From Bacilli bacterium (GTDB taxonomy: Bacteria > Bacillota_I > Bacilli_A > RF39 > UBA660), in assembly GCA_900753325.1 (NCBI GenBank), contig CAADYO010000009.1, positions 2,333-66,332 on the forward strand: a stretch of DNA of 64,000 nt. The letters run 5' to 3'. This document shows positions 2,409-59,297 of this stretch, piece after piece. The number at the start of each line of letters is the position of its first letter. Positions within the stretch are counted from its first letter, which is position 1. The translations under genes and the position numbers were made by a program. The notes beneath the pieces were generated by a model. It saw only the letters and a program-made list of their open reading frames with translations. It did not search any database and was not told the DNA's origin.

Positions 2409-3005
2409 ATGAAAAAAGCATTTCTAGAGTCATCTTTAAGTTTTATTCAAAATTATAAAGATTTTTCTGAACATGATATTGATAAGTTACGATATGGCTT
2501 GGAAGGCATTTATCTAACAATTGAAAAACTTGTAGTGATTGTTGCTGTTAGTTTATTACTGGGTATATTAAAAGAAGTTGTTATAACTTTGGTTTTGTTT
2601 AATATCATTCGTTTTACTGGATTTGGTTTCCATGCCGAAAAAAGTATTCAATGCTTATTTATTTCATTATTTCAATTTGTCTTTGTTCCATATATTTTTA
2701 TTAGCTTACATATATCTAAATATGTTATGTTAGCTATTTGTGGAATTTGTATTATTAGTTACATATTATTTGCTCCTGCTGATACTATTAAAAGACCATT
2801 ACCAAATAAAAGAAAAAGAACCATTCGCAAATGGGCAACTGTTTTGACTGGTATTATCTATACATTAATAATAGCGTTTTTCAATTCATTTTTAACACCA
2901 TTGTTATTAAGTTCATTAATCATTGAAGCTATTGTTATTAATCCTTTACTTTATATGGCATTTAATCAACCATATAATAATTATAGGAACTACGTTCAGG
3001 CTTAA
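2409..3005 (+). CDS. agrB: AgrB-family accessory gene regulator protein B (AgrD-processing membrane cysteine endopeptidase)
   Basis: 198 aa polytopic membrane protein. GFGFHAEKSIQCLFIS places His and Cys 7 residues apart, as the catalytic H77/C84 pair of staphylococcal AgrB. It is followed by an AgrD-like peptide gene and flanked by an AgrC/AgrA-like two-component pair. Confidence 0.8.
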   Translation: MKKAFLESSLSFIQNYKDFSEHDIDKLRYGLEGIYLTIEKLVVIVAVSLLLGILKEVVITLVLFNIIRFTGFGFHAEKSIQCLFISLFQFVFVPYIFISLHISKYVMLAICGICIISYILFAPADTIKRPLPNKRKRTIRKWATVLTGIIYTLIIAFFNSFLTPLLLSSLIIEAIVINPLLYMAFNQPYNNYRNYVQA

Positions 3006-3050
3006 AATATCTAATATTTTAGCATAAATTAAAAAAGGAGGACAAATATT

Positions 3051-3173
3051 TTGAAAAGTAAAATCGCGTATTTACTATCAGCAATCGCAATGTTAGCTAC
3101 AGGAGCAGCTAGTTTAGGATGTATTTGGTTTCTTGTTGATGAACCTAAAGCTATGAAAAGTCTTTGTGATTAA
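3051..3173 (+). CDS. agrD: AgrD-like autoinducing-peptide precursor (40 codons, TTG start)
   Basis: Not in the ORF track (shorter than 60 aa). RBS AAAAAGGAGGA lies 7 nt upstream of TTG 3051. Translation: MKSKIAYLLSAIAMLATGAASLGCIWFLVDEPKAMKSLCD. It has an N-terminal amphipathic leader, a Cys followed by four hydrophobic residues (CIWFL, the thiolactone-ring geometry of staphylococcal AIPs), then an acidic D-E-P-K tail like the conserved AgrD C-terminal recognition motif. It lies directly after agrB. Confidence 0.7.
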   Translation: MKSKIAYLLSAIAMLATGAASLGCIWFLVDEPKAMKSLCD

Positions 3174-3176
3174 TTA

Positions 3177-3203
3177 AAAAGTGTCCTATTTAGACACTTT
3201 TTT
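3177..3203. terminator. Bidirectional intrinsic terminator between convergent agrBD and agrAC
   Basis: AAAAGTGTC-ctattta-GACACTTTT is a perfect 9-bp stem with A-run before and T-run after. It sits between the agrD stop (3173) and the agrC stop (3186). Confidence 0.65.
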
Positions 3204-4487
3204 CTTTATTGTAATTTCTTGAATATAATATTTGTCAATTACTTCTTGCCTTTGACTTAGCCAGGGATTTTCAGAAATTAGTTTAGAAGCAAAGTACAAA
3301 CCGTTACCATGCCCTGCACCTTTTGAGGAAACACCTTTCTTATTTCTTTCATTAAAGTTCTTAGTTTTTTTAAAAGTATTGGAGAAAACAAAAGTTACAT
3401 GATCTTTTATCTCATAAACTTCAACAAGAACTTTCTTTTTTCTTGTTTCACGAGCAGCTTCAATAGCGTTATCAAAATAAATGCCAATCAGTTGACATAA
3501 TATCTTAACATCTTTTTCAGGTAGTTTTGATAACAGCGAATGCAATTCTAGACTTACATCAACAGTTAGGTCTATTTTATTCTTTTGAGCAATGGCAGCT
3601 TTATAGTACATTAAGCCTTTGATTCCACCTTTAGGTAGTGATTTAAGTTGATGAACTACCTCGCCTTCTATATTAATACTATCTTCTAATATGTCATCAA
3701 TCTTATCTTTTACTTTCTTTTCAGAGGTAAGGCAGCGTAATACGGCTAATTGATTTTTGTACTCATGACGATTTAATTGTTCTTTTTCAATCCAATCCTC
3801 AAAGTTTTGAACATATGTAAACAAATTCTCATATTCTGAATTTAATTTTTCATAATTATTTTTACCCTTTATAAAAAAGTATGATAATAAAAAGAAAATT
3901 ATCATTATCGTAATATTTACATAATAATTTGATTCCCCGGCATTTACCATTGATACGTTTTGTCCTAATGAACTCAATCCAATAATTAGCAAAACCACAA
4001 ATAATATATTTGAAACCGATTTATTTCTCGAAATACTATTGTAGAAATTTTGTAACTGACGGAGAATAAGCTTTACTTTCAATGTAATCATGCCAAATAT
4101 TGCGACTAGAATATTGCTTAATATATATAAGTATCCAGTTGAGCGAATTTGTTTTAATGTAAAACATTTCATTAATAAAAATCCACTCATTAAATCACCA
4201 AATATTGTAAGCATCATTACTATTCCACAGGCTATAAGTGATTCTTCAACTTTTAGGTTAAACATTTCTTTATAAACAATAATTTGTAGTGCAAAAATTG
4301 CAATTGTTCCAATTCCTGCATATTCCTTTTTTGATATAAATATTGTTGCTAAGCATAATACTATAATCTGAATAATGGTTTTCGGGCTCAACACCTTTAT
4401 TTCACGATTTGTTATTTTTTCTATTACAAAAATCCCAAATATTGTCATTATCAATGCACATATTAATCTAGCGCAAACCTCTAACAT
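3186..4487 (-). CDS. agrC: AgrC-like membrane sensor histidine kinase (HPK10 family)
   Basis: 433 aa. The N-terminal about 200 aa is polytopic membrane sensor. H-box NRHEYKNQLAVL matches AgrC RHDYxN. The C-terminus has the GHKL ATPase (GAGHGNGLYFASKLI). It overlaps the upstream LytTR regulator by 20 nt. Confidence 0.8.
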   Translation of the reverse strand: MLEVCARLICALIMTIFGIFVIEKITNREIKVLSPKTIIQIIVLCLATIFISKKEYAGIGTIAIFALQIIVYKEMFNLKVEESLIACGIVMMLTIFGDLMSGFLLMKCFTLKQIRSTGYLYILSNILVAIFGMITLKVKLILRQLQNFYNSISRNKSVSNILFVVLLIIGLSSLGQNVSMVNAGESNYYVNITIMIIFFLLSYFFIKGKNNYEKLNSEYENLFTYVQNFEDWIEKEQLNRHEYKNQLAVLRCLTSEKKVKDKIDDILEDSINIEGEVVHQLKSLPKGGIKGLMYYKAAIAQKNKIDLTVDVSLELHSLLSKLPEKDVKILCQLIGIYFDNAIEAARETRKKKVLVEVYEIKDHVTFVFSNTFKKTKNFNERNKKGVSSKGAGHGNGLYFASKLISENPWLSQRQEVIDKYYIQEITIKKKVSK

Positions 4488-5199
4488 ATCTTTCTAACTC
4501 CTTTCTCTTTTCTCTAGCTACGGCTTCTAGCTTTTCATTGTTTTTAAAAGTTATTACATTTAACTTAGTATCATAATGTTCTACTTGTTCAACATTTACA
4601 TATAGGCTTCTACTACATTTTATAAAACGCTTATCTAATTCTTTAGCAATTGTACTTAAACTACCTGGCATATGATAATTTCCATTAATCGTTTTAATCA
4701 TACTTATCTTTGAGTCTTGAACTTTTTCAATATAAAGGATGTGTCTCAGTTCAATATTATATGAAACATTATGATAATTATACTTTATACTTTTAAACCT
4801 TTTATCATAATGCTTCATACATATTTGAAGGGCTTCCCTTAGTCTTTTTTCACAATTATCTAGTTTATTAATAAAGTCAACTAACATCAATCTTTTTCCT
4901 AGTGCTTCGTATTTAAATTCTGAGTATGCTGTTATTATCATTATCATTGATACCCAATCATCAAATTCTTCTCTTATTCTCCTTGCGGCATCTATACCTG
5001 AACCATTGGTTGTTTTTATATCTAGTAGATATATTTTAAAATCTTTTTCACTTTTTACAAACTCTTCCCATTTGTCTGTGTAGCCTCTGAATCTATATAT
5101 CTTATACTCTGCATCATTACTCATCATAAATTTATCAATTTCGCTTATATATTTCTTGGCTAAAATATCTTCATCTTCACATATTACAAAATTAATCAT
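4468..5199 (-). CDS. agrA: AgrA-like response regulator (receiver + LytTR DNA-binding domain)
   Basis: 243 aa. N-terminal receiver (MINFVICEDEDIL...LLDIKT). The C-terminal 100 aa have LytTR-like composition. It is translationally coupled to the histidine kinase. Confidence 0.75.
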   Translation of the reverse strand: MINFVICEDEDILAKKYISEIDKFMMSNDAEYKIYRFRGYTDKWEEFVKSEKDFKIYLLDIKTTNGSGIDAARRIREEFDDWVSMIMIITAYSEFKYEALGKRLMLVDFINKLDNCEKRLREALQICMKHYDKRFKSIKYNYHNVSYNIELRHILYIEKVQDSKISMIKTINGNYHMPGSLSTIAKELDKRFIKCSRSLYVNVEQVEHYDTKLNVITFKNNEKLEAVAREKRKELERYVRGLR

Positions 5200-37452: not shown

Positions 37453-38358
37453 TTACCTCCCTGATTCTAAGTTCATTATTTCTAGTAGTCTATTTAAATC
37501 ATTACCGTTAACAAAACTAATTTCAATTTTATTATTTTTAATTTTTACTTTAGTTCCTAATTTTTCGCAAAGTTCCTCTTGCAAGTATTCATATTCTGGA
37601 ATAATCTTCTTTGGTTTTCTTTTTATCTCATGAACACGTAAAAACTTTTCATTTGATTGAGTCATATTTTCTAACTCGCGGACACTTAAACCTTCTTCTA
37701 CAACTTTTTTAGCAAGGTCTATCTGCTGTTCTGTATTTTCTAGTTTGCTTATTATTCTAGCATGTCCCATACTTAAACTTTTATTGCTAAGACTTTTTTG
37801 TACCTCTTCTGGTAGAGTTAATAAACCTAGCATGTTGGTTATATGGCTTCTACTTTTTCCTAATCTATTTGCTAATTCTTCTTGAGTTAGGGATAATGAT
37901 TCTAATAATTTTTTATAGGCAGTTGCTTCTTCTATGGCATTTAGATCTTCTCTTTGAAGATTCTCTAATAAAGCAATTTCCATCATTTCATCATCTGAAA
38001 AGTCACGTATAATAGCCGGTATTTCATCTAATCCAGCTATTTTAGAAGCTTTTACTCTTCTTTCTCCAGCAATTATTTCATAACCTTTAATACTTTTTTT
38101 TATGATTATTGGTTGGAATACTCCATGTTCCTTTATTGATGCTGCTAGTTCATTTAAAGCTGTTTCATTAAATACTTTTCTAGGCTGATATGGATTACTT
38201 CTTAATTCAGAAATTTTTACTAGTTTTATTTCTTCTTTTGGGGTTTCTGTTAAAATTTTTTCTTCTACTTTGCTATAATCAATTGGTTCATTGTAGAATA
38301 GTTCTTCTAATCCTCTTCCTAGTGCTCTTCTTTTATTATTGTTCTCCATTTCTTTCAA
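37453..38358 (-). CDS. parB: Chromosome partitioning protein ParB/Spo0J (parS-binding paralog)
   Basis: 301 aa; GERRVKA arginine patch. HTH recognition region RLGKSRSHITNMLGLL is Spo0J-type (R...N), in contrast to the Noc-type paralog at 39216. Confidence 0.85.
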   Translation of the reverse strand: MKEMENNNKRRALGRGLEELFYNEPIDYSKVEEKILTETPKEEIKLVKISELRSNPYQPRKVFNETALNELAASIKEHGVFQPIIIKKSIKGYEIIAGERRVKASKIAGLDEIPAIIRDFSDDEMMEIALLENLQREDLNAIEEATAYKKLLESLSLTQEELANRLGKSRSHITNMLGLLTLPEEVQKSLSNKSLSMGHARIISKLENTEQQIDLAKKVVEEGLSVRELENMTQSNEKFLRVHEIKRKPKKIIPEYEYLQEELCEKLGTKVKIKNNKIEISFVNGNDLNRLLEIMNLESGR

Positions 38359-39124
38359 TCACTTCCTTTGCTAAATTTAAGTATGCTTCTGATCCTCTAC
38401 TTTTTGGATCGTATACTATAATAGGTTCTCCATGCGATGGAGCCTCTGTTAATCTAACTAATCTAGGAATAATTGTATTATATACTTTTTCTTTAAAGAA
38501 TTTTCTAATGTCTTCAACTACTTCAAATCCTAAGTTCGTTCTAGAATCTAGCATTGTTAGTAAAACTCCTTCTATTACTAAATCTGGATTTAACGTCTTT
38601 TGAGCAAGCATGATTGTCTTTAAAAGCTGAGTTATTCCTTCTAGTGCAAAAAATTCACATTGTACTGGAATTATAACTGAGTTTGACGCTGTTAGAGCAT
38701 TTGTTGTTATGACGCCTAGTGATGGTGGACAATCTATAATTATATAGTCAAATCCATCTTTTATTTCTGATATATGTCTTTTTAATTGCTCACCTTTTTG
38801 AAAGCCACTTTCTTGTTTACTTTTTTCTACTAGTTCAATGTCTAGTCCAGCTAAATTAATTGTTGCTGGTAAAACATAAAGATTTTTATATTTTGTTTTA
38901 ATCATGGCTTCTGTAATTGTACATTCATCTATTAATACATCATAGATACTTCTTTCAATATCACCTTTGTTTATTCCGACACCAGTAGTTGTATTTCCTT
39001 GTGGATCTAAATCTATTAATAAAACTTTTTTCCCTAATACTGCTAATGATGCAGAAAGATTGATACTAGTTGTTGTTTTTCCTACTCCGCCTTTTTGATT
39101 TACTAATGATATAACCTTTCCCAT
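38336..39124 (-). CDS. parA: ParA/Soj partitioning ATPase
   Basis: 262 aa; deviant Walker A KGGVGKTT. Confidence 0.9.
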   Translation of the reverse strand: MGKVISLVNQKGGVGKTTTSINLSASLAVLGKKVLLIDLDPQGNTTTGVGINKGDIERSIYDVLIDECTITEAMIKTKYKNLYVLPATINLAGLDIELVEKSKQESGFQKGEQLKRHISEIKDGFDYIIIDCPPSLGVITTNALTASNSVIIPVQCEFFALEGITQLLKTIMLAQKTLNPDLVIEGVLLTMLDSRTNLGFEVVEDIRKFFKEKVYNTIIPRLVRLTEAPSHGEPIIVYDPKSRGSEAYLNLAKEVIERNGEQ

Positions 39125-39191: not shown

Positions 39192-39217
39192 TTAAAAAAA
39201 AGTAGATTTCTCTACTT
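39192..39217 (-). terminator. Intrinsic terminator after noc-like gene
   Basis: AAGTAGA-tttc-TCTACTT is a perfect 7-bp stem with T-run on the minus strand. It overlaps the stop codon. Confidence 0.5.
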
Positions 39218-40559
39218 ATTTATCTATTTTAATTATTACTTGATAAGCTGTTGCAAAATCCATTTCATCAAACGTTACTTTTCCACCATGATTTTCAATA
39301 TCTTTAACAACTTCACGAATTTTGTTAATAATTTGAGGCAAATCATAATTTCCAGTTGGAGCTTCAACTTGTGGGTTTGGAATATTTAATATACTACTTT
39401 GTTGTGTCGCTGCTGGTTGTTGAGTTGAAGAAATATTTTGTGGTAAATCTGTTGCTTTAATATTTGGCATATTAAAGTAATCCTTGATTGACTCTTCTTC
39501 TGCAGTAGCATCTCCCTTAACAATTGCTTCTGCTGGTGTTAAGTATTTTTGTTCTGATGGTTCTTGAGACTTTTGCTCATTGTTTTGACTAACAACTGGC
39601 GTAATATTTAATAAACTATCTAAGTCAGCTATTGGTTCATTTTGAATTGGTTTTATATCCATAGCATTTTCCTTTATTGTACTAACATCTACTGGTTGTA
39701 CTTCTACTTCATTATAATAAGAATCTTTTGGTTCTTCTACTGCTTCCTTATCTATTTCTCCGTAATTAATAAATTTTTGAACTGTTTGATTATTATTTTC
39801 AGTTGGTGGAGAAATTGTTACTTGTCCGTAATTCATAGGATTTGATGGCATAGCCGATGGTGTTGTTGAAGTACCAATAGTGGCATTTGCCGCAACTGAT
39901 GGTATTGTTTCACTTGCTTGGGTCATTTGAAATCCTTGTGATTCTCTTTTTGGACTTATTTTAGCTATTTCTTCCTCTACTGCTCTTACTGTCATTTTAT
40001 TTGTTATTATTTTCTTTAATAATTCTTTTTGTTGCTTAGCGTCTGGTAAATTTAGTAAGGCTCTTGCATGTCGTTCTGATATTTGTTCTTTTAAAAGTGA
40101 ATCTTGGACTTCATCTGGTAAGGCTAACAAACGTAATTTATTAGCAACAGCTGACTGACTCTTACCCATCGTTTTAGCTAGTTCATCTTGTGTCATTTGG
40201 TCAAGCTCCAAGATCTTTTGATATGTTCTAGCTTCTTCAATTGGATTTAGATTTTTTCTTTGAAGATTTTCTAGTAGAGCAACTTTAGAACTTTCTTTGT
40301 CATCAAGATCTCTTATTATTGCAGGGATTTTTGTCATACCAGCTAATGCTGAAGCTTTATAGCGACGTTCTCCGGCAATTATTTCATATTTACCATTAAC
40401 ACGTCTAACAATAATTGGTTGAATTACACCATGTTCTTTTATTGATAAAGCGAGTTCTTTTAAAGCTCTTTCATCAAATACTTCTCTTGGCTGGAAACGA
40501 TTTGGAATTATATCATCTAAGTATAAGTATACAACTTCATCTTTAGTTTCTGTATTCAT
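39216..40559 (-). CDS. noc: Noc-like ParB-family protein (NBS-binding paralog) with long low-complexity C-terminal extension
   Basis: 447 aa. The N-terminal about 255 aa align closely with B. subtilis Noc (IIPNRFQPREVFDE..ALKELALSIKEHGVIQPIIVR). The recognition helix GKSQSAVANKLRLL is Noc-type (Q..K), unlike Spo0J R..N. It sits in the conserved noc slot between rsmG and parA. There is no N-terminal amphipathic membrane peptide. Residues about 260-400 are Q/P/S/T/N-rich. Confidence 0.75.
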   Translation of the reverse strand: MNTETKDEVVYLYLDDIIPNRFQPREVFDERALKELALSIKEHGVIQPIIVRRVNGKYEIIAGERRYKASALAGMTKIPAIIRDLDDKESSKVALLENLQRKNLNPIEEARTYQKILELDQMTQDELAKTMGKSQSAVANKLRLLALPDEVQDSLLKEQISERHARALLNLPDAKQQKELLKKIITNKMTVRAVEEEIAKISPKRESQGFQMTQASETIPSVAANATIGTSTTPSAMPSNPMNYGQVTISPPTENNNQTVQKFINYGEIDKEAVEEPKDSYYNEVEVQPVDVSTIKENAMDIKPIQNEPIADLDSLLNITPVVSQNNEQKSQEPSEQKYLTPAEAIVKGDATAEEESIKDYFNMPNIKATDLPQNISSTQQPAATQQSSILNIPNPQVEAPTGNYDLPQIINKIREVVKDIENHGGKVTFDEMDFATAYQVIIKIDK

Positions 40560-40661: not shown

Positions 40662-41300
40662 CTATATTTTGTTTGTTATGACAAGTAAACTTCTTTGACT
40701 ATTTTCATATGGTAGGAGAAATTGTTCTATTTTTACAATGTTATATTTTTGACTTATTTTCTTTCTTGTTAAATCATTTAGTTCTTCTGAAATATTACCT
40801 TTCATAGCTATAAATACTCCATTTGGTGCTACTAAATGCATTGTATATTTTAGTAATTTTTCAATATTGGCTACAGCTCTTGCTGTTACAACATCATATT
40901 TTTCTTTTAGGTCTTCTCCTCTTGCGTGAATCGCAGTTATTCCATCTAAATTTAACTCTTTAATAATTGTATTTAGGTAATTTACTCTTTTTTGAAGAGC
41001 ATCAACTAATGTTATTTTTAAATTTGGATAAACTATTTTTAAAACTATTCCTGGAAAACCAGCACCTGTTCCAACATCACATAATGTTTTAGAGTTTTTT
41101 AAGTTTATTACTTTAGAAATTGTTAAACTGTCATAAAAATGTTTTAAATATACTTCTTCTTTAGATGTTATTCTAGTTAAATTTATTTTTTCATTCCATT
41201 CTATCAATAAATTATAAAACTGTTCTAATTGATTTATTTGTTTATCTGTTAGTTTTATACCTAACTTACTTGTTTCAATAATAAATTCTTCTTTAGTCAT
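40662..41300 (-). CDS. rsmG: 16S rRNA (guanine527-N7)-methyltransferase RsmG (GidB)
   Basis: 212 aa; SAM motif [10 protein letters not shown]. Confidence 0.9.
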
Positions 41301-46934: not shown

Positions 46935-47065
46935 ACAGTTTCCACAGATATGTGGAATATTAAAATAAGGTGTGTGGAATAAAAATTGTGGAAAATGTGG
47001 AAAAGTTATTTTTATTATTTTATATCAATAGTTTTATTTGTGGAAAAAATTGTGGATTGTGTGTT
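46935..47065. promoter_or_regulatory. oriC part 1: DnaA-box cluster and dnaA promoter region
   Basis: At least six 9-mers within 0-2 mismatches of TTATCCACA/TGTGGATAA (TTTCCACAG, TGTGGAATA x2, TGTGGAAAA x3, TGTGGATTG) in 130 bp upstream of dnaA. Confidence 0.7.
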
Positions 47066-47155
47066 GAAAAAAATTTTTACAATAAAATTGTTTATTTTTT
47101 TCACAATTTAATGTACACTAATCGTAGTTTATTTATCTTGTGGGGAGATGGTGGA

Positions 47156-48523
47156 ATGAATGTCGATATTATATGGACCAAATTTTTGGACCAAATAAAA
47201 GATGAACTTACTTCATTATCTTTCGATACTTGGTTTGCTGATACTACGTTGCATAGATTGGAAAATGGTAAAGCATATATAATTGTTCCAATGCCAATTC
47301 ATAAGAAACATTTAATTGATAATTATTCTGATCTCATTGTAAAAACGTTAAATGAGATTACAGGTACAAATTTTGAATTGGTATTGATTTTAAAAGAAGA
47401 AATAGAGGATGTTTTGCCTAAAAAAGTGGAAATTGAACCTGAGTTAGAAGGTGTTCCTAATAATAAAATTCAGTCTAATTTAAATGTTAAATATACTTTT
47501 GATAATTTTATAGTCGGTAATAGTAACAAATTTGCTCATGCAGCAGCTCTTTCTGTGGCTGAAAATCCTGGCAAAATGTATAATCCTTTATTTATATATG
47601 GAAATAGCGGATTAGGTAAAACTCATTTAATGCACGCAATTGGTAATTATATATTAGAAAATACTAATAAAAAAGTTTTATATGTTACGTCTGATCAATT
47701 TACACAGGATTTTATAAAGGTTAATAAAAAAGATGATTCTGGCACTAATTTTAATTATATTGATTTTTTTAAGAATAAATATCGCAATATTGATGTTCTT
47801 ATTATTGATGATATTCAATTTTTAGGTGGAGCTACTAAGACTCAACAGGAATTTTTCCACACCTTTAATTCTTTATATAATGATAGTAAACAAATAATTA
47901 TTTCCTCTGATAGATCTCCAGATGATTTAAAATTACTGGAAGATCGTCTAAGAACTAGATTTTGTTGGGGATTAACTGTTAACATATTTCCACCTGATTT
48001 TTCTTTAAGAATGCAGATTTTAAAGAAAAAAATAATTGGTGGTAATTTTGAAAAAGAAATATCTGAAGATGTTATTGAGTATATTGCATCTAATATTGGC
48101 ACTGATGTTAGACAATTGGAAGGTTCAATAACAAGGCTTATTGCTTATTCAACAATAATGGGTGGAGCAGAAATAACACTTGATTTAGCAATAGAGGCAC
48201 TTAAGGACTTTATTAGCAAGGGAATGAGCGAAAAAAATGACATTCAAAGAATTCAAAAAATTGTATCCGAATATTTTCAAATATCAGTTGAGGATATTAG
48301 AAGTAAAAAGCGGAGCTCTAATATTTCTTTTCCAAGACAAATTGCTATGTACCTGTGTAGGAATATGACAAATGAATCATTTCCTAAGATAGGAACAGAA
48401 TTTGGTGGAAAAGATCATTCAACAGTAATGCATTCAGTGGAAAAGATTGAAAATGAGATAAAAGTTAATAAAGATTTAGCTAATATAATAGAAAAGTTGA
48501 AAAAGGATATAGGTATTGTGTAA
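47156..48523 (+). CDS. dnaA: Chromosomal replication initiator DnaA
   Basis: 455 aa from ATG 47156 (RBS GGAGATGG). The track ORF starts 62 codons upstream and runs through the DnaA-box region. AAA+ Walker A GNSGLGKTHL; domain IV HTH. Confidence 0.9.
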   Translation: MNVDIIWTKFLDQIKDELTSLSFDTWFADTTLHRLENGKAYIIVPMPIHKKHLIDNYSDLIVKTLNEITGTNFELVLILKEEIEDVLPKKVEIEPELEGVPNNKIQSNLNVKYTFDNFIVGNSNKFAHAAALSVAENPGKMYNPLFIYGNSGLGKTHLMHAIGNYILENTNKKVLYVTSDQFTQDFIKVNKKDDSGTNFNYIDFFKNKYRNIDVLIIDDIQFLGGATKTQQEFFHTFNSLYNDSKQIIISSDRSPDDLKLLEDRLRTRFCWGLTVNIFPPDFSLRMQILKKKIIGGNFEKEISEDVIEYIASNIGTDVRQLEGSITRLIAYSTIMGGAEITLDLAIEALKDFISKGMSEKNDIQRIQKIVSEYFQISVEDIRSKKRSSNISFPRQIAMYLCRNMTNESFPKIGTEFGGKDHSTVMHSVEKIENEIKVNKDLANIIEKLKKDIGIV

Positions 48524-48539
48524 AACTTTAAGTTATTGA

Positions 48540-48654
48540 ATTTTTATCCACAAGTAAATGTTAACAAAAATGAATGATAAATAAAGAAAAAAATAAGTTT
48601 TCAACTTTTTCCACAGTAATAATATAAATAATAAAAGAAAGAAGGAATATATAT
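48540..48654. promoter_or_regulatory. oriC part 2: DnaA boxes plus AT-rich unwinding region between dnaA and dnaN
   Basis: Perfect TTATCCACA at 48544-48552 and TTTTCCACA near 48606. The stretch between them is more than 85% AT. Confidence 0.6.
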
Positions 48655-49943: not shown

Positions 49944-50390
49944 ATGAAATACGAATTTAGTAAAGGAACATTAGCAATTGTTCCAAATGAAAATGAAAGT
50001 AGTTTGGTCTATGAAGACGACGATAGATATATCATTGATCAAACACCATTTAAAATAATGGAGGAGAGCTGTAAGTATTTTGGTAGTACTTATGCTGGAC
50101 GAAAAGATAGTGCACGATCTATTTTAGGAGCTGAATATAAGGTACCTATTATTGTAGAAGATAGTGATAATTTAATTGTTTTTCCAACAACTTCGCCACA
50201 GTCTACTGATTGTACATGGGTATCATTGAAAAGAATTAAATCGTTTGTAAAAATTGACTCAAGTAATACAAAAATAATTTTTGATAATGGTAAAGAGATT
50301 ATTGTTCCATGTTCATATAGAACAATAGAAAACCAAGTTTCGAGGGCTTCTAGATTAGATTTAATTATGCGTAGTAGAAAAAATCGTTAA
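49944..50390 (+). CDS. comK: ComK-family competence transcription factor
   Basis: 148 aa; aligns along its whole length with B. subtilis ComK. LAIVPNEN / ATIAVLPEE; SCKYFGSTYAGRK / SCRFFGSSYAGRK; VPIIVEDSDNLIVFPTTSPQSTDCTWVS / PPIMVDPSNQIFLFPTLSSTRPQCGWIS; FDNGKEIIVPCSYRTIENQVSRASRL / FSNGKTMELPISYNSFENQVYRTAWL. Confidence 0.8.
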   Translation: MKYEFSKGTLAIVPNENESSLVYEDDDRYIIDQTPFKIMEESCKYFGSTYAGRKDSARSILGAEYKVPIIVEDSDNLIVFPTTSPQSTDCTWVSLKRIKSFVKIDSSNTKIIFDNGKEIIVPCSYRTIENQVSRASRLDLIMRSRKNR

Positions 50391-53588: not shown

Positions 53589-56039
53589 ATGGATAGATTA
53601 GAAAAAAATAATATTGTAAAAGAAGTCCAAGACTCTTTTTTAGAGTATTCAATGAGTGTTATTGTTGCTCGTGCACTTCCTGATTTAAGAGATGGTTTAA
53701 AGCCAGTTCACAGAAGAATTCTTTATTCGATGTATGAATCTGGATATACACCTGATAAGCCTCATAAGAAGAGTGCAAGAATTGTTGGAGATGTTATGGG
53801 TAAATATCATCCTCATGGTGATTCTAGTATTTATGAGGCTATGGTTAGAATGGCTCAGGACTTTTCTTATCGTTATATGTTAGTCGATGGTCATGGTAAT
53901 TTTGGTAATATTGAAGGTTATGGTGCTGCTGCAATGCGTTATACAGAGTCTAGGCTTTCAAAAATTTCCTTGGAATTACTTAGAAATATAAATAAAAATA
54001 CTGTTGATTTTAGTCCTAACTTTGATGAAAGTGAAAGAGAACCAGATGTTTTACCTTCACGCTTTCCTAATATTTTAGTTAATGGTACAACGGGTATTGC
54101 TGTTGGTATGGCTACTAATATTCCTCCACATAATTTAAGCGAAGTAATAGACGGTTGTGTTGCTTATATTGATAACCATGATATTACTTTAGATGAATTA
54201 ATGCAGTATATTAAAGGTCCTGATTTTCCAACTGGAGCAACAATTTTGGGTAATAGTGGCATTCGTAAGGCATATGAAACTGGACGTGGTACGATTACTA
54301 TTAGAAGTAAGGCTCGAATTGAAGAAAAAGATGGAAAACATTATATTATTATTGATGAAGTTCCTTATGGTGTTAATACCTTAGAATTAAAGAATAAAGT
54401 AGCTGAACTTGTTCATAATAAGACAATTGAGGGTATTGCTGATTATCATTCTGATTTAAAAGATGGTATTAAAATTACAATTACTTTGAAAAGAGATGCT
54501 AATGCACAAGTTATTTTAAATAAGTTATATAAGCATACAGCTTTTCAAACTACTTATGGAATAATTTTCTTAATGTTGGATCAAGGTGTTCCTAAGACAT
54601 TAGGTTTAAAAGATATTATTGTTAAGTATATTGATTTTCAAAAGGAAGTTATTATTCGTCGAACTAAATATGATTTAGATGTTGCTGAAAAGAGAGTTCA
54701 TATTTTAGAGGGCTTAAAGATAGCTTTGGATAATATTGATGCTGTTATTAAACTAATTCGTGCGGCTAAATCTGATGATGAAGCTAGAACTGGTTTAATG
54801 AATAATTTTAAATTAACTGAAATTCAGGCTAATGCTATATTAGAAATGAAATTACGCCGTTTAACCGGCTTAGAACGTGAAAAGATAGAAAATGAATTAA
54901 ATGACTTATTGAAATTAATTGAAGAATTACGTGGCATTTTAGCTAGTGATGATAAGGTCTTAGAAGTAATTAAAAATGAACTTCTTGAAATTAAGGATAA
55001 ATATGGTGATGAACGCCGTACTAATATTGATATGACGGCCATTGAATATATTGAAGATGAATCTTTAATTCCAAATGAAGATGTAATAATTACTTTGACT
55101 AGAAATGGTTATATTAAGAGACTTAGAACTGATACTTACAGGACTCAAAATCGTGGTGGTGTAGGTGTTAATGGTATGACTACAAATGAAGAGGATTTTG
55201 TTGAACAGTTAGTTTCTATGAAAACACATGATTATATTTTATTCTTCTCAAACAAGGGTAGAGTTTATAGAATGAAAGGTTATGAAGTACCTGAGTTTTC
55301 AAGACAATCTAAAGGTTTACCTATCATCAATTTACTACAATTAGATAAAAATGAGAACATTAGTTCGATTGTTGAAATTTCTGCTGATAGTAGTGAGATT
55401 AAATATTTGGTATTTACTACTAGAAATGGAATAGTTAAGAGAACTAATATTTCTGAATTTGATAGTATAAGAAAATCTGGTAAGATTGCTATTGTTTTAA
55501 AGGAAAATGATGAGTTAATATCTGTAAGAAAGACTTGTGGAAATGAGGAAATTGCTATTGGTGCTAACAATGGTAGAATGGTGAGATTCTCTGAAGATGA
55601 AATAAGACCTATGGGTAGAAGCAGTTCTGGTGTTAAGGGTATTGATCTTGATGATAGTTTTGTAGTTGGTGCTGAAGTTGTAATACCTGGTCAAACTATT
55701 CTTATTGTTACCGATAATGGTTATGGTAAGAAAACTGTTATTGATGAATATAGGTTAACTCATAGGGGCAGTAAGGGTGTTAAAGCTCTTAATATTACAG
55801 AAAAAAATGGTACTATGGTTGCACTAAAGTGTATTGATGATAAAGAATATGATGTAATTATTGTTACTGATAATGGTACTGTTATGAAAATGCCATTAGA
55901 TCAAGTTTCTACTTTAAAACGTGCGACTCAGGGTGTAAGACTTATTAATTTAAAAAATAATGAAAAAGTATCAACTGTTGCAATAGTTGAAAAGGAAACT
56001 ACTGGTGAACTTGTTGATGATTTAAATAAAGAAAGTTAA
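53589..56039 (+). CDS. gyrA: DNA gyrase subunit A
   Basis: 816 aa; active-site region AAMRYTE, GyrA box QRGGVG-like (NRGGVGV), C-terminal beta-pinwheel repeats. Confidence 0.95.
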
Positions 56040-56047
56040 AATTATTT

Positions 56048-56076
56048 AAGGCGACTTTAATTGTCGTCTTTTTTTG
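56048..56076 (+). terminator. Intrinsic terminator of gyrA
   Basis: AAGGCGAC-tttaatt-GTCGTCTT followed by TTTTTTG. Confidence 0.6.
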
Positions 56077-56296
56077 TAAACTTTTATAACTTTTATGTAA
56101 AATTTTACTTGTGGAAAAAAATTTTTTGTTTTTAATATTTTTTTATTAAATAATCTTATTACTAATTATTTGTTTAAAATATGAATATATAATTTAATTC
56201 TATTTTATATATGTTATTGATTGTGAATATTTTATATATTTTTTATTTATTAAAATATAATTTGTACTGTTAACTTACTTGATTTTAATTCAATTT

Positions 56297-56312
56297 ATTT
56301 CCTGGGAAATAA
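56297..56312. promoter_or_regulatory. Noc-binding site (NBS) variant, TATTTCCTGGGAAATA
   Basis: One central substitution (C to T) relative to the 16-bp NBS palindrome TATTTCCCGGGAAATA. Confidence 0.55.
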
Positions 56313-56362
56313 TTTGTCACTATATTTTATTATCAGTTCTACTTATTTTTTTTATAGTTTTA

Positions 56363-56378
56363 TGTTTCACGTGAAACA
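56363..56378. promoter_or_regulatory. parS: parS site, perfect 16-bp palindrome TGTTTCACGTGAAACA
   Basis: Exact match to the Firmicute parS consensus tGTTtCACGTGAAACa; flanked A/T, which extends the palindrome to 18 bp. Confidence 0.8.
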
Positions 56379-56483
56379 TTGTATTATTTTCATACTTGGA
56401 TTTTTTTTGCTCTAAAAAAACATTACATTTTTACAGAATTATATTTTATGTATGTTTATTTTAGTTATATTCATCCAAAAATT

Positions 56484-56499
56484 ATTTCCCGGGAAATAA
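56484..56499. promoter_or_regulatory. Noc-binding site (NBS), perfect TATTTCCCGGGAAATA within a 28-bp perfect palindrome
   Basis: AAAAATTATTTCCCGGGAAATAATTTTT (56477-56504). CCCGGG is very rare in a 27% GC genome. Confidence 0.75.
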
Positions 56500-56556
56500 T
56501 TTTTAATGTATTTTATGTCTATTTTACTCATTTGTAATTTTTGCCTATTTAATTAA

Positions 56557-56572
56557 TATATCACGTGAAATA
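56557..56572. promoter_or_regulatory. Chimeric parS/NBS-like palindromic site TATATCACGTGAAATA
   Basis: The central CACGTG core is parS-type. Outer positions 2 and 15 (A and T) are NBS-type. Position 4 (A) matches neither consensus. Confidence 0.45.
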
Positions 56573-56776
56573 TTGCAATGGTGTATGTGGTCATTTTATT
56601 TATTTTATAATGATAGATTTTTGTTTACGATAATCGCATAGTGTTATATAAGTTTTTTTGCATAAGTATTTTACGAAAATATATCTAATATTTTATATTC
56701 TTATAAAAATCTAAATTTTGATAATATTATTTTAAAGTTATTTTCTTGGAGATACTTTTAGTAATGCATGTGCTTA

Positions 56777-56792
56777 TGTTTCACGTGAAACA
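56777..56792. promoter_or_regulatory. parS: parS site, perfect TGTTTCACGTGAAACA
   Basis: Identical 16-mer to the other two intergenic parS copies. Confidence 0.8.
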
Positions 56793-56886
56793 TATAATTT
56801 ACTTTGATTTATTATTATTGATCTTTATTTTATGTTTTAACTAATATTTTATAATATTTAAATATTTGATTAATTTTTTATAAAAT

Positions 56887-56902
56887 TATTTCCCGGGAAA
56901 TA
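56887..56902. promoter_or_regulatory. Noc-binding site (NBS), perfect TATTTCCCGGGAAATA
   Basis: Embedded in the 24-bp palindrome AAATTATTTCCCGGGAAATAATTT (56883-56906). Confidence 0.75.
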
Positions 56903-56936
56903 ATTTATTATGGCAAGTATCTTTAATATATATTAA

Positions 56937-56952
56937 TGTTTCACGTGAAACA
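56937..56952. promoter_or_regulatory. parS: parS site, perfect TGTTTCACGTGAAACA, 11 bp upstream of the ffs -35
   Basis: The 20-bp palindrome AATGTTTCACGTGAAACATT (56935-56954) sits immediately upstream of the ffs promoter TTTACA-17-TAGAAT. Confidence 0.8.
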
Positions 56953-56963
56953 TTAAAATTTCA

Positions 56964-56992
56964 TTTACAAAAAGTTACATATATATTAGAAT
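56964..56992 (+). promoter_or_regulatory. Sigma-A promoter of ffs (SRP RNA)
   Basis: -35 TTTACA (56964-56969), 17-bp spacer, -10 TAGAAT (56987-56992); transcription start about 6-8 nt downstream. Confidence 0.6.
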
Positions 56993-56998
56993 AATATC

Positions 56999-57079
56999 GT
57001 GCAATGAAAGCGGTGGAAACAGGTCAGGATTGGAAAATAGCAGCCTTAACATTAAACTTTCATGTGCACTTTTTATTTT
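56999..57079 (+). ncRNA. ffs: Small (4.5S-type) signal recognition particle RNA
   Basis: ACAGGUCAGG-AUU-GGAA-AAU-AGCAGCC reproduces the universally conserved SRP RNA domain IV (helix 8): symmetric loop AGG / AGCAGCC closed by a 3-bp stem and GGAA tetraloop. The terminal stem GUGCAAUGAAAG / CUUUCAUGUGCAC closes the hairpin. A U-tract (TTTTTATTTT, 57070-57079) follows. The ORF-track N-terminus of the tadA ORF (57004) overlaps this RNA and is spurious. Confidence 0.65.
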
Positions 57080-57090
57080 GGGTGATTATT

Positions 57091-57546: not shown

Positions 57547-57590
57547 ATTTTATAATATATGATATAATTAATTTGATGGTGGGTGAGAAT

Positions 57591-59297
57591 ATGTATCATG
57601 CTTTATATAGAAAATATAGACCTCAAACATTTGATGATGTTGTAGGACAGAACTCTATTGTTACAACGCTTAAAAATTCGATAATCAATAAGACTTTTTC
57701 ACATGCTTATATGTTTTTTGGACCGAGAGGTACTGGAAAAACAACAGTTTCTAAAATTTTTGCTAGATCTATTAATTGTTTGAGTCCAGTTGATGGCTGT
57801 GCTTGTGGAAAATGTGATGCTTGTCTTCATTCTTTTGAAAAAGAATGTGTTGATATTATTGAAATAGACGCTGCTAGTAATAATGGTGTTGACGAAATAC
57901 GTGAACTTAAGAACAAGATTTCCTTAGTACCAGCTGAACTAAAATATAAAGTGTATATAATAGATGAAGTTCATATGCTATCTATTGGTGCTTTTAATGC
58001 TTTGCTTAAAACTTTAGAAGAGCCGCCTGAGCATGCTGTCTTTATTTTGGCTACTACTGATCCACAGAAAGTGCCAGAAACTATTATTTCTCGTTGTCAG
58101 TGTTTTTCTTTTAAAAGAATTTCTGAAAACTCTATTGTGGAAAGATTAAAAAATATTACCAATAAAGAAAATATTGCTATTGATGATAGTGTCTTAAATG
58201 ATATTGCTAATTTTTCTGATGGTGGGTTACGTGATGCATTAGGTTTATTAGATAAACTTAGTTCGTACACTAATAAGAAAGTTACTGCTGATTCTTTTGC
58301 TGAACTTAATGGTACTATTACAAATGCTGAACTGGAAAAATTTTCCAATTTGGTTTTTACTGGTGATATTTCTAGTATATTATTAAGCATTGAAACTTTT
58401 AATGACTCTGGTAAAAATTTAATTCAGGTTATTACTCAATTAATGAATTATTTACGCAATTTACTATTTTTATATTATACAAAGGGAGTTGAATTGATAG
58501 CTCCAATTGATCAAGTTATTAATTTGACTAATGTTATCAATAATAAGTTATTTGATATTAAAAAGACTGGTAATCCACGTGTATATATTGAAATGTTATT
58601 GATTGAATATGTGGAAAAAAATATTTTAAAAAGTAGTAATAAAATTATTTCCCGGGAAATAATTTCAAACGAATCTGTTGAAAAAGAAGAAACTAAAGTA
58701 CCACAAACAAATGTTTGCTATAGTCAAGACGATACTGTAGTACAGGAAACTAATAATGATTCAAAAAAGAATGTTTTGAGTGAAAACGTTGATATGCATG
58801 GTAGTTCTTCTAATGAGTGCGTTATTTTAAATATTAATGAAATTATGAAGGCTCGTGTTAATAATATTATGGCTGAAGCAAATAAAAAACTATTAAATGA
58901 TGTTATTAATAGTATTGGTATATTTAATGACTATACTTTTGATACTGAGATTGGCTTTGTTGCTTGTGCTTTATTGGATGCTAAAATACGTGCTGTAAGT
59001 AATAAGGGTATTATAATTAGTTATGAATATGATTCTATTGTGAAACAAAATATTTTGAATTTGAAAAAAATAACGGAAGTTTATAATAAGTTAACTAATT
59101 CTAATTATTCATTTGCTATTATCTCTGATAGTGATTGGAATACTGCAAAAGCTGATTATATTAAAACTATAAAATCTGGTGGTACTTATGAAATTATGAT
59201 TGAACCAGCTGAAGAAATATTGGAAGTGGATAAAAAAAATGATATAATATCTAATAGTGCAATTGAACTATTTGGTGATATTGTTGAAATTGATTAA
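57591..59297 (+). CDS. dnaX: DNA polymerase III subunit tau/gamma (DnaX)
   Basis: Start at MYHALYRKYRPQTFDDVVGQ; Walker A GPRGTGKTT; Zn module CxxC-CxxC; SRC motif. Confidence 0.9.
   Translation: MYHALYRKYRPQTFDDVVGQNSIVTTLKNSIINKTFSHAYMFFGPRGTGKTTVSKIFARSINCLSPVDGCACGKCDACLHSFEKECVDIIEIDAASNNGVDEIRELKNKISLVPAELKYKVYIIDEVHMLSIGAFNALLKTLEEPPEHAVFILATTDPQKVPETIISRCQCFSFKRISENSIVERLKNITNKENIAIDDSVLNDIANFSDGGLRDALGLLDKLSSYTNKKVTADSFAELNGTITNAELEKFSNLVFTGDISSILLSIETFNDSGKNLIQVITQLMNYLRNLLFLYYTKGVELIAPIDQVINLTNVINNKLFDIKKTGNPRVYIEMLLIEYVEKNILKSSNKIISREIISNESVEKEETKVPQTNVCYSQDDTVVQETNNDSKKNVLSENVDMHGSSSNECVILNINEIMKARVNNIMAEANKKLLNDVINSIGIFNDYTFDTEIGFVACALLDAKIRAVSNKGIIISYEYDSIVKQNILNLKKITEVYNKLTNSNYSFAIISDSDWNTAKADYIKTIKSGGTYEIMIEPAEEILEVDKKNDIISNSAIELFGDIVEID
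58646..58661. promoter_or_regulatory. Noc-binding site (NBS), perfect TATTTCCCGGGAAATA, inside the dnaX coding sequence
   Basis: Embedded in AAAATTATTTCCCGGGAAATAATTT (58641-58665). It encodes KIISREIIS of DnaX. Confidence 0.65.

Follow-up and report, generated by a model that had tools for sequence, protein, structure and literature searches.

Clusters of parS sites near bacterial replication origins are well known, and the centromere sopC of the F plasmid is an iterated one, made up of 12 repeats of 43 bp. Origin-proximal clusters of accessory sites are also known, in Bacillus subtilis in the form of the ram sites of RacA and of DnaA-box clusters. ParB and Noc are a textbook example of how the two copies of a DNA-binding protein come to differ in site specificity and function after duplication: in the species studied, their sites and roles are separate, those of ParB belonging to the centromere and those of Noc to scattered membrane tethers. 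The Noc-binding site (NBS) has been described as scattered around the chromosome (PMC8429893). This article concerns a 951-bp spacer between gyrA and ffs in which sites of both kinds are interleaved. It lies in a stretch of 64,000 nucleotides of a Bacilli bacterium (contig CAADYO010000009.1, positions 2,333 to 66,332, assembly GCA_900753325.1), which is referred to here as the window.

Which of the two sites a protein of this family recognizes is set by four positions, 173, 179, 184, and 201 in the numbering of Caulobacter ParB (Jalal et al., 2020, PMC7383237). The combination R/x/x/G leads to parS, and glutamine combined with lysine at 179 and/or 184 and with arginine at 201 leads to NBS, a single lysine at 179 or 184 being sufficient for the NBS type (PMC7383237). 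Noc also has an amphipathic N-terminal membrane-targeting helix, which is highly conserved and needed for nucleoid occlusion (PMC4331003, PMC8429893). The gyrA-ffs spacer of the window is probably an origin-proximal centromere, that is, a dedicated non-coding platform with interleaved nucleation sites for two paralogous proteins of the ParB family.

Two families of palindromes between gyrA and ffs

The spacer extends from gyrA (53589-56039) to ffs (56990-57085), the latter being the gene for the signal recognition particle RNA (Rfam RF00169, 51.7 bits). The original prediction, made from the letters of the DNA, placed alternating ParB and Noc sites here, and all the sites that it listed are present within 1 bp of the positions given, including the three perfect parS copies at 56363, 56777, and 56937. 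From gyrA to ffs, the order is N-P-N-(x)-P-N-P, where N stands for NBS, P for parS, and x for a degenerate site (Table 1). The NBS palindrome is (T)ATTTCCCGGGAAAT(A), and what sets it apart from parS are the bases at positions 1 and 6 in either half-site. Of the longer palindromes of up to 28 bp in which the NBS copies were said to be embedded, the 28-bp perfect one around NBS-2 is real. The central C-to-T change in NBS-1 is the commonest NBS variant in the clade. In six metagenome contigs of the same species, the array recurs with 0-5 differences over the 951 bp, and in three of these, NBS-3 has one mismatch.

The degenerate site at 56557 had been taken for a fourth copy of parS. It is degenerate, but it lies three mismatches from NBS just as it does from parS, its outer position being NBS-like and its inner position parS-like. 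The site is kept in all six conspecific contigs. Because the rest of the clade has hardly any intermediates of this kind, it is probably a decayed or decaying site, although its sequence could also be that of a dual or weak site.

The array was claimed to be far beyond chance, and the counts agree: with up to three mismatches over the whole 64 kb, 0.27 parS-like and 0.34 NBS-like matches are expected, and none of 100 shuffles reached the observed numbers. The window contains three CCCGGG hexamers, all of them within NBS sites. As predicted, the spacer has no open reading frame (ORF) of 60 or more amino acids, the longest being a TTG-initiated one of 52 amino acids, and an Rfam scan of the spacer, even at E <= 1, returned nothing besides ffs; a hidden gene or a structured RNA was therefore rejected. 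A tandem repeat was looked for in the window spacer and not found, low-complexity AT repeats alone being present.

The site survey of this genome covers about 84 kb, namely the 64-kb window and 10 kb on each side. No further parS or NBS was found at up to two mismatches in the 10 kb on either side, the other intergenic regions of the window have none, and the parB gene itself has no parS inside. The only site of the window outside the spacer is an NBS in dnaX, so that three of the four NBS in the survey belong to the array; a few isolated NBS occur in relatives. The dnaX copy encodes I-S-R-E-I through the rare codons TCC and CGG (CGG accounts for 4 of the 362 arginine codons sampled), and an NBS recurs at the matching offset downstream of gyrA in about 20 related species. 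The rare codons and this recurrence point to selection on the DNA site, not on the protein.

These observations bear on the possibility of independent co-location, in which the one sizeable non-coding stretch near oriC collected parS and Noc sites separately and without functional interplay. Both site types do favor origin-proximal DNA in studied species (PMC5540599), and palindromes of 16-24 bp are constrained by coding sequence. However, the other intergenic regions of the window are free of sites, and the NBS maintained within dnaX indicates that coding sequence is no barrier to them. For these reasons, and for those of order and spacing given below, we consider independent co-location unlikely.

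Conservation, alternation, and helical phasing in relatives

A GyrA-anchored scan with one genome per GTDB species gave 80 related loci, in which GyrA is 78-95% identical to that of the window. The relatives are uncultured gut Bacilli, with labels that include 'Mycoplasma sp. CAG:877', Candidatus Onthousia (Bacilli incertae sedis in the NCBI taxonomy), Candidatus Faecimonas, and 'Bacilli bacterium'; single related loci or contigs are labeled here with L and a number. The order gyrA-spacer-ffs-tadA-dnaX is kept wherever the contig continues. The original prediction remarked that in Bacillus-type genomes an rRNA operon normally follows gyrA, which is general background on Bacillus; in the present clade, its place after gyrA is taken by ffs-tadA-dnaX. 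At up to one mismatch, the threshold for site counts in relatives, the spacers contain 430 sites in 62.9 kb (6.8/kb) versus 34 in 892 kb of flank (0.038/kb), which is an enrichment of about 180-fold. Most of the 34 flank sites are NBS at the offset of the dnaX site of the window, and among the others are small tadA-dnaX arrays, which in some species take the place of the spacer array. Both site types share the spacer in 60 of the 80 species. The check that had been proposed, for conservation downstream of gyrA in related genomes, has thus come out in favor of a dedicated array and greatly strengthens that proposal.

With no location assumed, metagenomes were scanned for perfect NBS and parS copies separated by 4-34 bp, and at least 119 loci with adjacent NBS and parS were obtained. 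Among those with a recognizable flanking gene, nearly all adjoin gyrA, ffs, tadA, or dnaX, and the GC content is 19-31% in all but two of the loci listed. The lineages L210, L211, and L212, which appear more distant, were reached via GyrA relatives of L139, the GyrA of which is about 60% identical to that of the window. L212 has N-N-P-N-P straight after gyrA, and L211 has one NBS and three degenerate parS and a further NBS upstream of dnaA. This last site (L211:3448), a perfect copy in the rpmH-dnaA intergenic region that is the presumed oriC, recalls the minor Noc peaks beside dnaA in Staphylococcus aureus (PMC5540599). L210, on a 1.68-Mb contig, is rearranged, with a restriction-modification island after gyrA (L210:12457-18400; two methyltransferases and a LlaJI-type endonuclease) replacing ffs-tadA-dnaX.

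Neighboring sites are of alternating type in 246 of 357 cases, as compared with 184 +/- 8 (maximum 213) in 2000 shuffles. In addition, true tandem units with exactly one NBS and one parS each are found in L066 (75 bp, 8.8 copies) and L049 (64 bp, 7.8 copies). Runs of a single type in some species, such as NNNPPPP in L019, are in keeping with independent co-location, but alternation above all 2000 shuffles and the one-of-each composition of the tandem units argue against it. The tandem units also have a practical consequence. About a quarter of the related metagenome-assembled genome contigs stop a few hundred base pairs past gyrA, inside the array (L009, L012, L022, L047, L051, L054, L055, L058, and others), as expected if tandem arrays break assemblies. 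In this clade, assemblies break systematically at tandem parS/NBS repeats, and this accounts for the frequent breaks just past gyrA.

Both sites are longer in this clade than the canonical 16 bp. The conserved form of parS is ATGTTTCACGTGAAACAT, of 18 bp, with a flanking A/T that is 96-97% conserved in 597 distinct contexts, and that of NBS is AAAT-TATTTCCCGGGAAATA-ATTT, of about 24 bp, with flanks conserved at 79-90% versus a background of about 40% in 500 distinct contexts. Variation in parS falls at position 5/12, which is the known N of TGTTNCACGTGAAACA, and variation in NBS falls at the central CCCGGG, which becomes CCTGGG as in NBS-1 of the window. The sites form two discrete classes, 602 of parS type and 527 of NBS type, with two palindromes of mixed half-sites and few other intermediates. 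This clean split favors two distinct binders, each a homodimer, over heterodimers, and ParB-Noc heterodimer sites were rejected, given only 2 chimeric palindromes among more than 1100 sites.

The tandem copies in relatives, together with the resemblance of the CACGTG and CCCGGG cores to restriction-enzyme palindromes, might suggest a dispersed family of repetitive extragenic palindromes or miniature inverted-repeat transposable elements, or restriction-site-related palindromes, unrelated to ParB and Noc. Such a repeat family had been named in the original prediction as a finding that would overturn it. The test has now been run and leaves the array standing: the sites are not dispersed but confined to one syntenic locus, at the densities given above, and chimeric half-site combinations are essentially absent. 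Moreover, the sites match two published consensus sequences exactly, conservation spans 18-24 bp and does not extend to the inter-site spacers, and neither transposase genes nor terminal repeats are present. A repeat-family origin is contradicted by the confinement to one locus within the DNA surveyed and by the two clean site classes, and it was rejected as having next to no likelihood.

The spacing of the sites is also ordered. Distances between neighboring parS and NBS, measured center to center and counted once per locus and distance, peak at 26, 36, 48, 58, 68, 78, and 88 bp. For all 461 pairs, the period is 10.6 bp and the phase 4.7-4.8 bp (R = 0.32, Rayleigh z 47.7), and jittering every distance by up to 5 bp gave z values of at most 9.1. 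The phasing is seen in the genome set alone (n = 144, z 17.7), in the metagenome set alone among the matches listed (n = 317, z 30.9), at distances above 50 bp, which are outside the metagenome query range (n = 210, z 16.2), with perfect sites only (n = 345, z 41.1), and after merging spacers of the same length that are at least 70% identical (n = 372, z 32.3). The parS-NBS spacings in the window are 67, 120, 110, and 50 bp, and three of the four match the phased series. Sites of the same type that flank one site of the other type are whole turns apart (z 8.9), NBS-NBS neighbors show weak phasing near whole turns (z about 4), and parS-parS neighbors are unphased (z <= 1.2 at 10.6 bp). The lack of phase between parS pairs would be natural under independent co-location, but phased heterotypic spacing beyond 50 bp would not. 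With a phase close to half a turn, the dyads of neighboring parS and NBS face opposite sides of the helix, and the phasing suggests that bound ParB and the bound Noc paralogue constrain each other.

The gyrA-ffs spacers have a third recurrent element, the DnaA box. After masking of parS and NBS, the most enriched 8-mers are DnaA-box words, TTTCCACA being found in 24 and TATCCACA in 20 of 56 complete spacers with fewer than one expected, and TTWTCCACA occurs at 1.84/kb in spacers versus 0.40/kb elsewhere. A minus-strand box is found about 70-190 bp past gyrA in most related species, including the window (56110). Some lineages (L015:9729-10380 is a case in point) have boxes set directly against parS, as in ATGTTTCACGTGAAACATTATCCACAGAAA, or against NBS, the offsets being fixed, and L054:8480-9187 consists of tandem units of one NBS and a degenerate DnaA box, without parS. 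This enrichment might suggest that the platform chiefly regulates DnaA and initiation together with ParB/Soj and Noc, segregation being secondary. ParB/Soj and Noc both influence initiation in model Firmicutes. In particular, Noc of S. aureus restrains it (PMC5540599). However, the window array has a single box, which adjoins no site, many arrays are free of boxes (for example, those of L048, L049, and L073), the universal components are parS and NBS rather than boxes, and oriC sits at dnaA. A locus devoted mainly to replication control is therefore rather improbable.

The position of the origin itself is marked by the cumulative GC skew, which turns at 46-47 kb, and by DnaA-box clusters that flank dnaA. 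By these features, the array is separate from oriC and lies 8-9 kb to its right; with the skew switch and box clusters at dnaA and one box in the spacer, a role of the spacer as oriC or as part of a bipartite origin was rejected. A separate observation concerns the dnaA gene. Its longest ORF, 46970-48523 on the plus strand, starts from a GTG at 46970, but the match to the DnaA family begins only at residue 69, and three DnaA boxes (46987-47047) fall inside this 5' extension. The real start of dnaA is probably about 200 bp downstream, and the three boxes probably belong to the upstream half of oriC.

Finally, the array fills the gap from the gyrA terminator to the ffs promoter. In 41 of 55 species, parS is the type of site nearest to ffs, and in many species this last site is right upstream of the ffs -35 hexamer. 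Such an arrangement would be compatible with an insulator, in which sliding ParB clamps would be stopped by Noc dimers on NBS or, conversely, Noc by ParB, or with operators for the expression of ffs-tadA-dnaX or gyrA. Some ParB-family proteins, such as KorB and VirB, regulate transcription (PMC10676424). However, a fixed operator position relative to ffs is unsupported, as the last site can lie anywhere from 52 to 315 bp away from the start of ffs and the promoter is never overlapped. Up to nine interleaved pairs exceed the needs of a boundary, and the arrays lie between tadA and dnaX in some species. We consider an insulator or operator function very unlikely.

ParB and its Noc paralogue

The minus-strand gene order mnmE-mnmG-rsmG-noc-parA-parB is canonical, and noc is about 16 kb away from the array. 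At the four specificity positions, ParB of the window reads R, M, T, G, which is the parS type (motif GKSRSHITNMLGLLTLP...SMGHAR), and the protein at the noc position reads Q, K, A, R, which is the NBS type (motif GKSQSAVANKLRLLALP...SERHAR). The two proteins thus differ in their recognition residues in the way that had been expected, and Q, K, A, R is invariant or nearly so across 40 homologues of the Noc paralogue. From these residues, ParB is predicted to bind the 18-bp parS and the Noc paralogue the NBS of about 24 bp. ParB and the Noc paralogue are 53% identical over 194 amino acids. The latter matches the Pfam families ParB_N (1e-34) and HTH_ParB (1e-35), its GERR motif for cytidine triphosphate (CTP) is invariant in the homologues, and its best structure matches are the Noc crystal structures 7NFU (E = 8e-63) and 7OL9.

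The identification of this second protein as Noc holds for the NBS-type specificity residues, but not for Noc in the canonical sense: judged by its sequence, the protein is not a canonical Noc and fails two of the defining features of Noc. Its ORF cannot be extended upstream, its N-terminus is MNTETKDEVV, with the same short start in 40 of 40 aligned homologues, and its alignment to Noc of Geobacillus thermoleovorans starts only at residue 24 of the latter. The membrane-targeting helix, of about 10-15 amino acids, is therefore absent from the Noc paralogue and its 40 homologues. Against the NCBIfam model TIGR04285 (nucleoid_noc), the paralogue scores 297.3 bits, which is below the cut-off of 315, and ParB scores 242.5 bits.

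Between the DNA-binding and C-terminal domains, the Noc paralogue has a linker of about 200 amino acids that is predicted to be disordered (AlphaFold2 predicted local distance difference test below 50) and that contains four conserved short motifs, KFINYGEID, ADLDSLLNI, TPAEAIVK, and DYF. A known domain was sought in the linker and C-terminal region, but Pfam returned nothing there, and among 1.84 billion representative proteins the region has just 63 relatives, all of them long Noc-like proteins or fragments, with no other protein context. The architecture is conserved within the clade and is limited to it. With its membrane helix lost, its sites gathered at the centromere, and conserved motifs in its disordered linker, the Noc paralogue would seem to be an adaptor associated with the centromere and not a nucleoid-occlusion factor of the classical kind.

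Table 1. Features of the array, the origin region, and the partition genes in the window
Feature	Position	Strand	Description
gyrA intrinsic terminator	56048-56078	+	8-bp stem, T-tract; left edge of the non-coding platform
DnaA-box-like site	56110-56118	-	TTTTCCACA; 71 bp past the gyrA stop
NBS-1	56296-56311		TATTTCCTGGGAAATA; one mismatch, CCTGGG core; in 24-bp near-palindrome 56292-56315
parS-1	56363-56378		Perfect TGTTTCACGTGAAACA; 18-bp form ATG...CAT at 56362-56379
NBS-2	56483-56498		Perfect TATTTCCCGGGAAATA; center of 28-bp perfect palindrome 56477-56504
Degenerate site	56557-56572		TATATCACGTGAAATA; three mismatches from parS and from NBS consensus alike
parS-2	56777-56792		Perfect
NBS-3	56887-56902		Perfect; inside 24-bp palindrome 56883-56906
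parS-3	56937-56952		Perfect; ends 12 bp before the ffs -35 hexamer
ffs promoter-like site	56964-56992	+	TTTACA-17-TAGAAT, 10/12 matches; right edge of the platform
NBS in dnaX	58646-58661		Perfect, with extended flanks (AAAATTATTTCCCGGGAAATAATTT); within dnaX 57573-59297; only window site outside the spacer
oriC region around dnaA	46987-48615		DnaA-box clusters 46987-47047 and 48544-48615; GC-skew minimum
ParB/Spo0J	37453-38358	-	R,M,T,G residues; N-terminal LGRGLEELF motif
ParA/Soj-type ATPase	38336-39124	-	
Noc paralogue	39216-40559	-	447 aa; ParB N-domain with GERR, helix-turn-helix, disordered linker, Noc-like C-terminal domain
rsmG	40662-41300	-	

Several other features of the window are outside the array. 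An agr-like quorum-sensing module is found at 2409-5199, as assigned by Pfam calls on the identical contig L208, with AgrB (2409-3005, plus strand), a HATPase_c_5-type histidine kinase (3186-4487, minus strand), and a LytTR response regulator (4468-5199, minus strand). Between dnaN and recF is an ORF of 148 amino acids (49944-50390, plus strand), at a position where the relatives L211 and L212 have a gene that matches the ComK family (PF06338); a ComK-like gene within the dnaA-dnaN-recF-gyrBA cluster is unusual. An ordinary L31-Firmicutes ribosomal-protein leader (RF03156, 9265-9294, minus strand, 34.7 bits, just over the gathering score) is located upstream of the L31 gene.

Proposed mechanism and comparison with known systems

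In the centromere that we propose, each dimer would, as ParB and Noc proteins already studied do, nucleate at its own site, close as a CTP-dependent clamp, and slide onto flanking DNA, so that a single nucleoprotein complex containing both proteins would form 8-9 kb from oriC. Segregation driven by ParA would be the task of its ParB component. The Noc paralogue may bring a partner to the same spot, rather than take part in genome-wide nucleoid occlusion. The half-turn spacing would put ParB and the Noc paralogue on opposite faces of the DNA, and the DnaA boxes in the arrays of many relatives suggest a link to the control of replication initiation. The sequences directly show the sites, with their restriction to this locus and their conservation, alternation, and phasing, as well as the specificity residues and architecture of the two proteins; that these proteins bind, load with CTP, and form a complex together, and what the complex does in the cell, we infer from the established biochemistry of ParB and Noc.

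Several points weigh against a centromere of this kind. The distribution of parS and NBS is known from about 84 kb of this genome and from the homologous region of relatives. The array of the window is irregular and has a single DnaA box, 13 of the 80 loci have one site type only (8 NBS-only and 5 parS-only), and the rearranged lineage L210 keeps a single NBS after gyrA. In 7 of the 8 NBS-only and 2 of the 5 parS-only loci, the contig ends inside the spacer. Alternation is partly a by-product of the tandem duplication of N+P units. The phasing is a tendency, 60% of distances being within 2 bp of the series versus 47% expected, and kinship among species may inflate its significance.

A more specific form of the proposal is that this broad clade of uncultured low-GC gut Bacilli evolved a two-faced composite centromere, in which ParB and a repurposed Noc would be loaded in fixed register on opposite faces of the DNA, at a single tandem platform beside oriC that often includes DnaA boxes, and would interact physically or functionally as clamps during loading. 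Noc would thereby have turned from a factor for genome-wide nucleoid occlusion into an adaptor specific to the centromere. We put this form forward tentatively, as a possibility that falls short of being probable.

A full-text literature search turned up no description of parS and NBS interleaved in arrays or helically phased with each other, nor of a Noc without a membrane helix. The arrangement is new, and its components belong to the known parS, NBS, and ParB families. The longer sites, the half-turn spacing of parS and NBS, the DnaA boxes as a third element, and the helix-less Noc with its linker are also new here. In this clade, the sites of the two paralogues, separate in studied species, are juxtaposed in genomes of the species level and metagenome contigs that together number well over a hundred. 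This suggests that Noc may have a function beyond nucleoid occlusion, and the clade is a natural setting in which to learn whether CTP-dependent clamps that are paralogues help, hinder, or insulate each other when they load on adjacent sites. Because the element is compact, with a length of a few hundred base pairs, it is open to direct testing in vitro or to transplantation into B. subtilis.

Overall, this locus exhibits considerable similarities to the partition systems of other Firmicutes, but there are also clear differences. As in the Spo0J/parS system of B. subtilis, the 16-bp site is identical (TGTTNCACGTGAAACA), origin-proximal, and variable at the degenerate position 5/12, and as in Firmicute ParABS systems generally, ParA and ParB are encoded beside noc and rsmG, ParB having the R/G-type residues and GERR. 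Unlike in those systems, in which parS sites are dispersed over hundreds of kilobases or located in genes, all the parS sites found here are in one intergenic spacer of less than 2.3 kb, with an 18-bp site, tandem repeats in relatives, and interleaving with the sites of a second paralogue.

The same holds for Noc. The NBS core TATTTCCCGGGAAATA, the position of noc, the Q173/K179/R201-type residues, and the presence of at least one NBS outside the array (in dnaX) are shared with B. subtilis and S. aureus. In contrast to Noc of these species, the paralogue has no membrane-targeting helix, a disordered linker of about 200 amino acids, and a TIGR04285 score below the cut-off, and its sites extend to about 24 bp and are concentrated at the centromere, not scattered.

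Relatives such as L066 and L049 resemble sopC in having head-to-tail units that each bear a ParB-family palindrome, but unlike sopC, the locus is chromosomal and each unit carries two different palindromes for two paralogues, the array of the window itself being non-tandem. Finally, the accessory clusters of B. subtilis (PMC3245932) likewise bring the sites of a second DNA-binding protein close to oriC, where they work together with ParB/parS to organize the origin or to control initiation, and they include DnaA boxes outside oriC. Here, the second protein differs in being a ParB paralogue, and probably a CTP clamp, the sites of which are interleaved with parS at the scale of base pairs and in helical phase.

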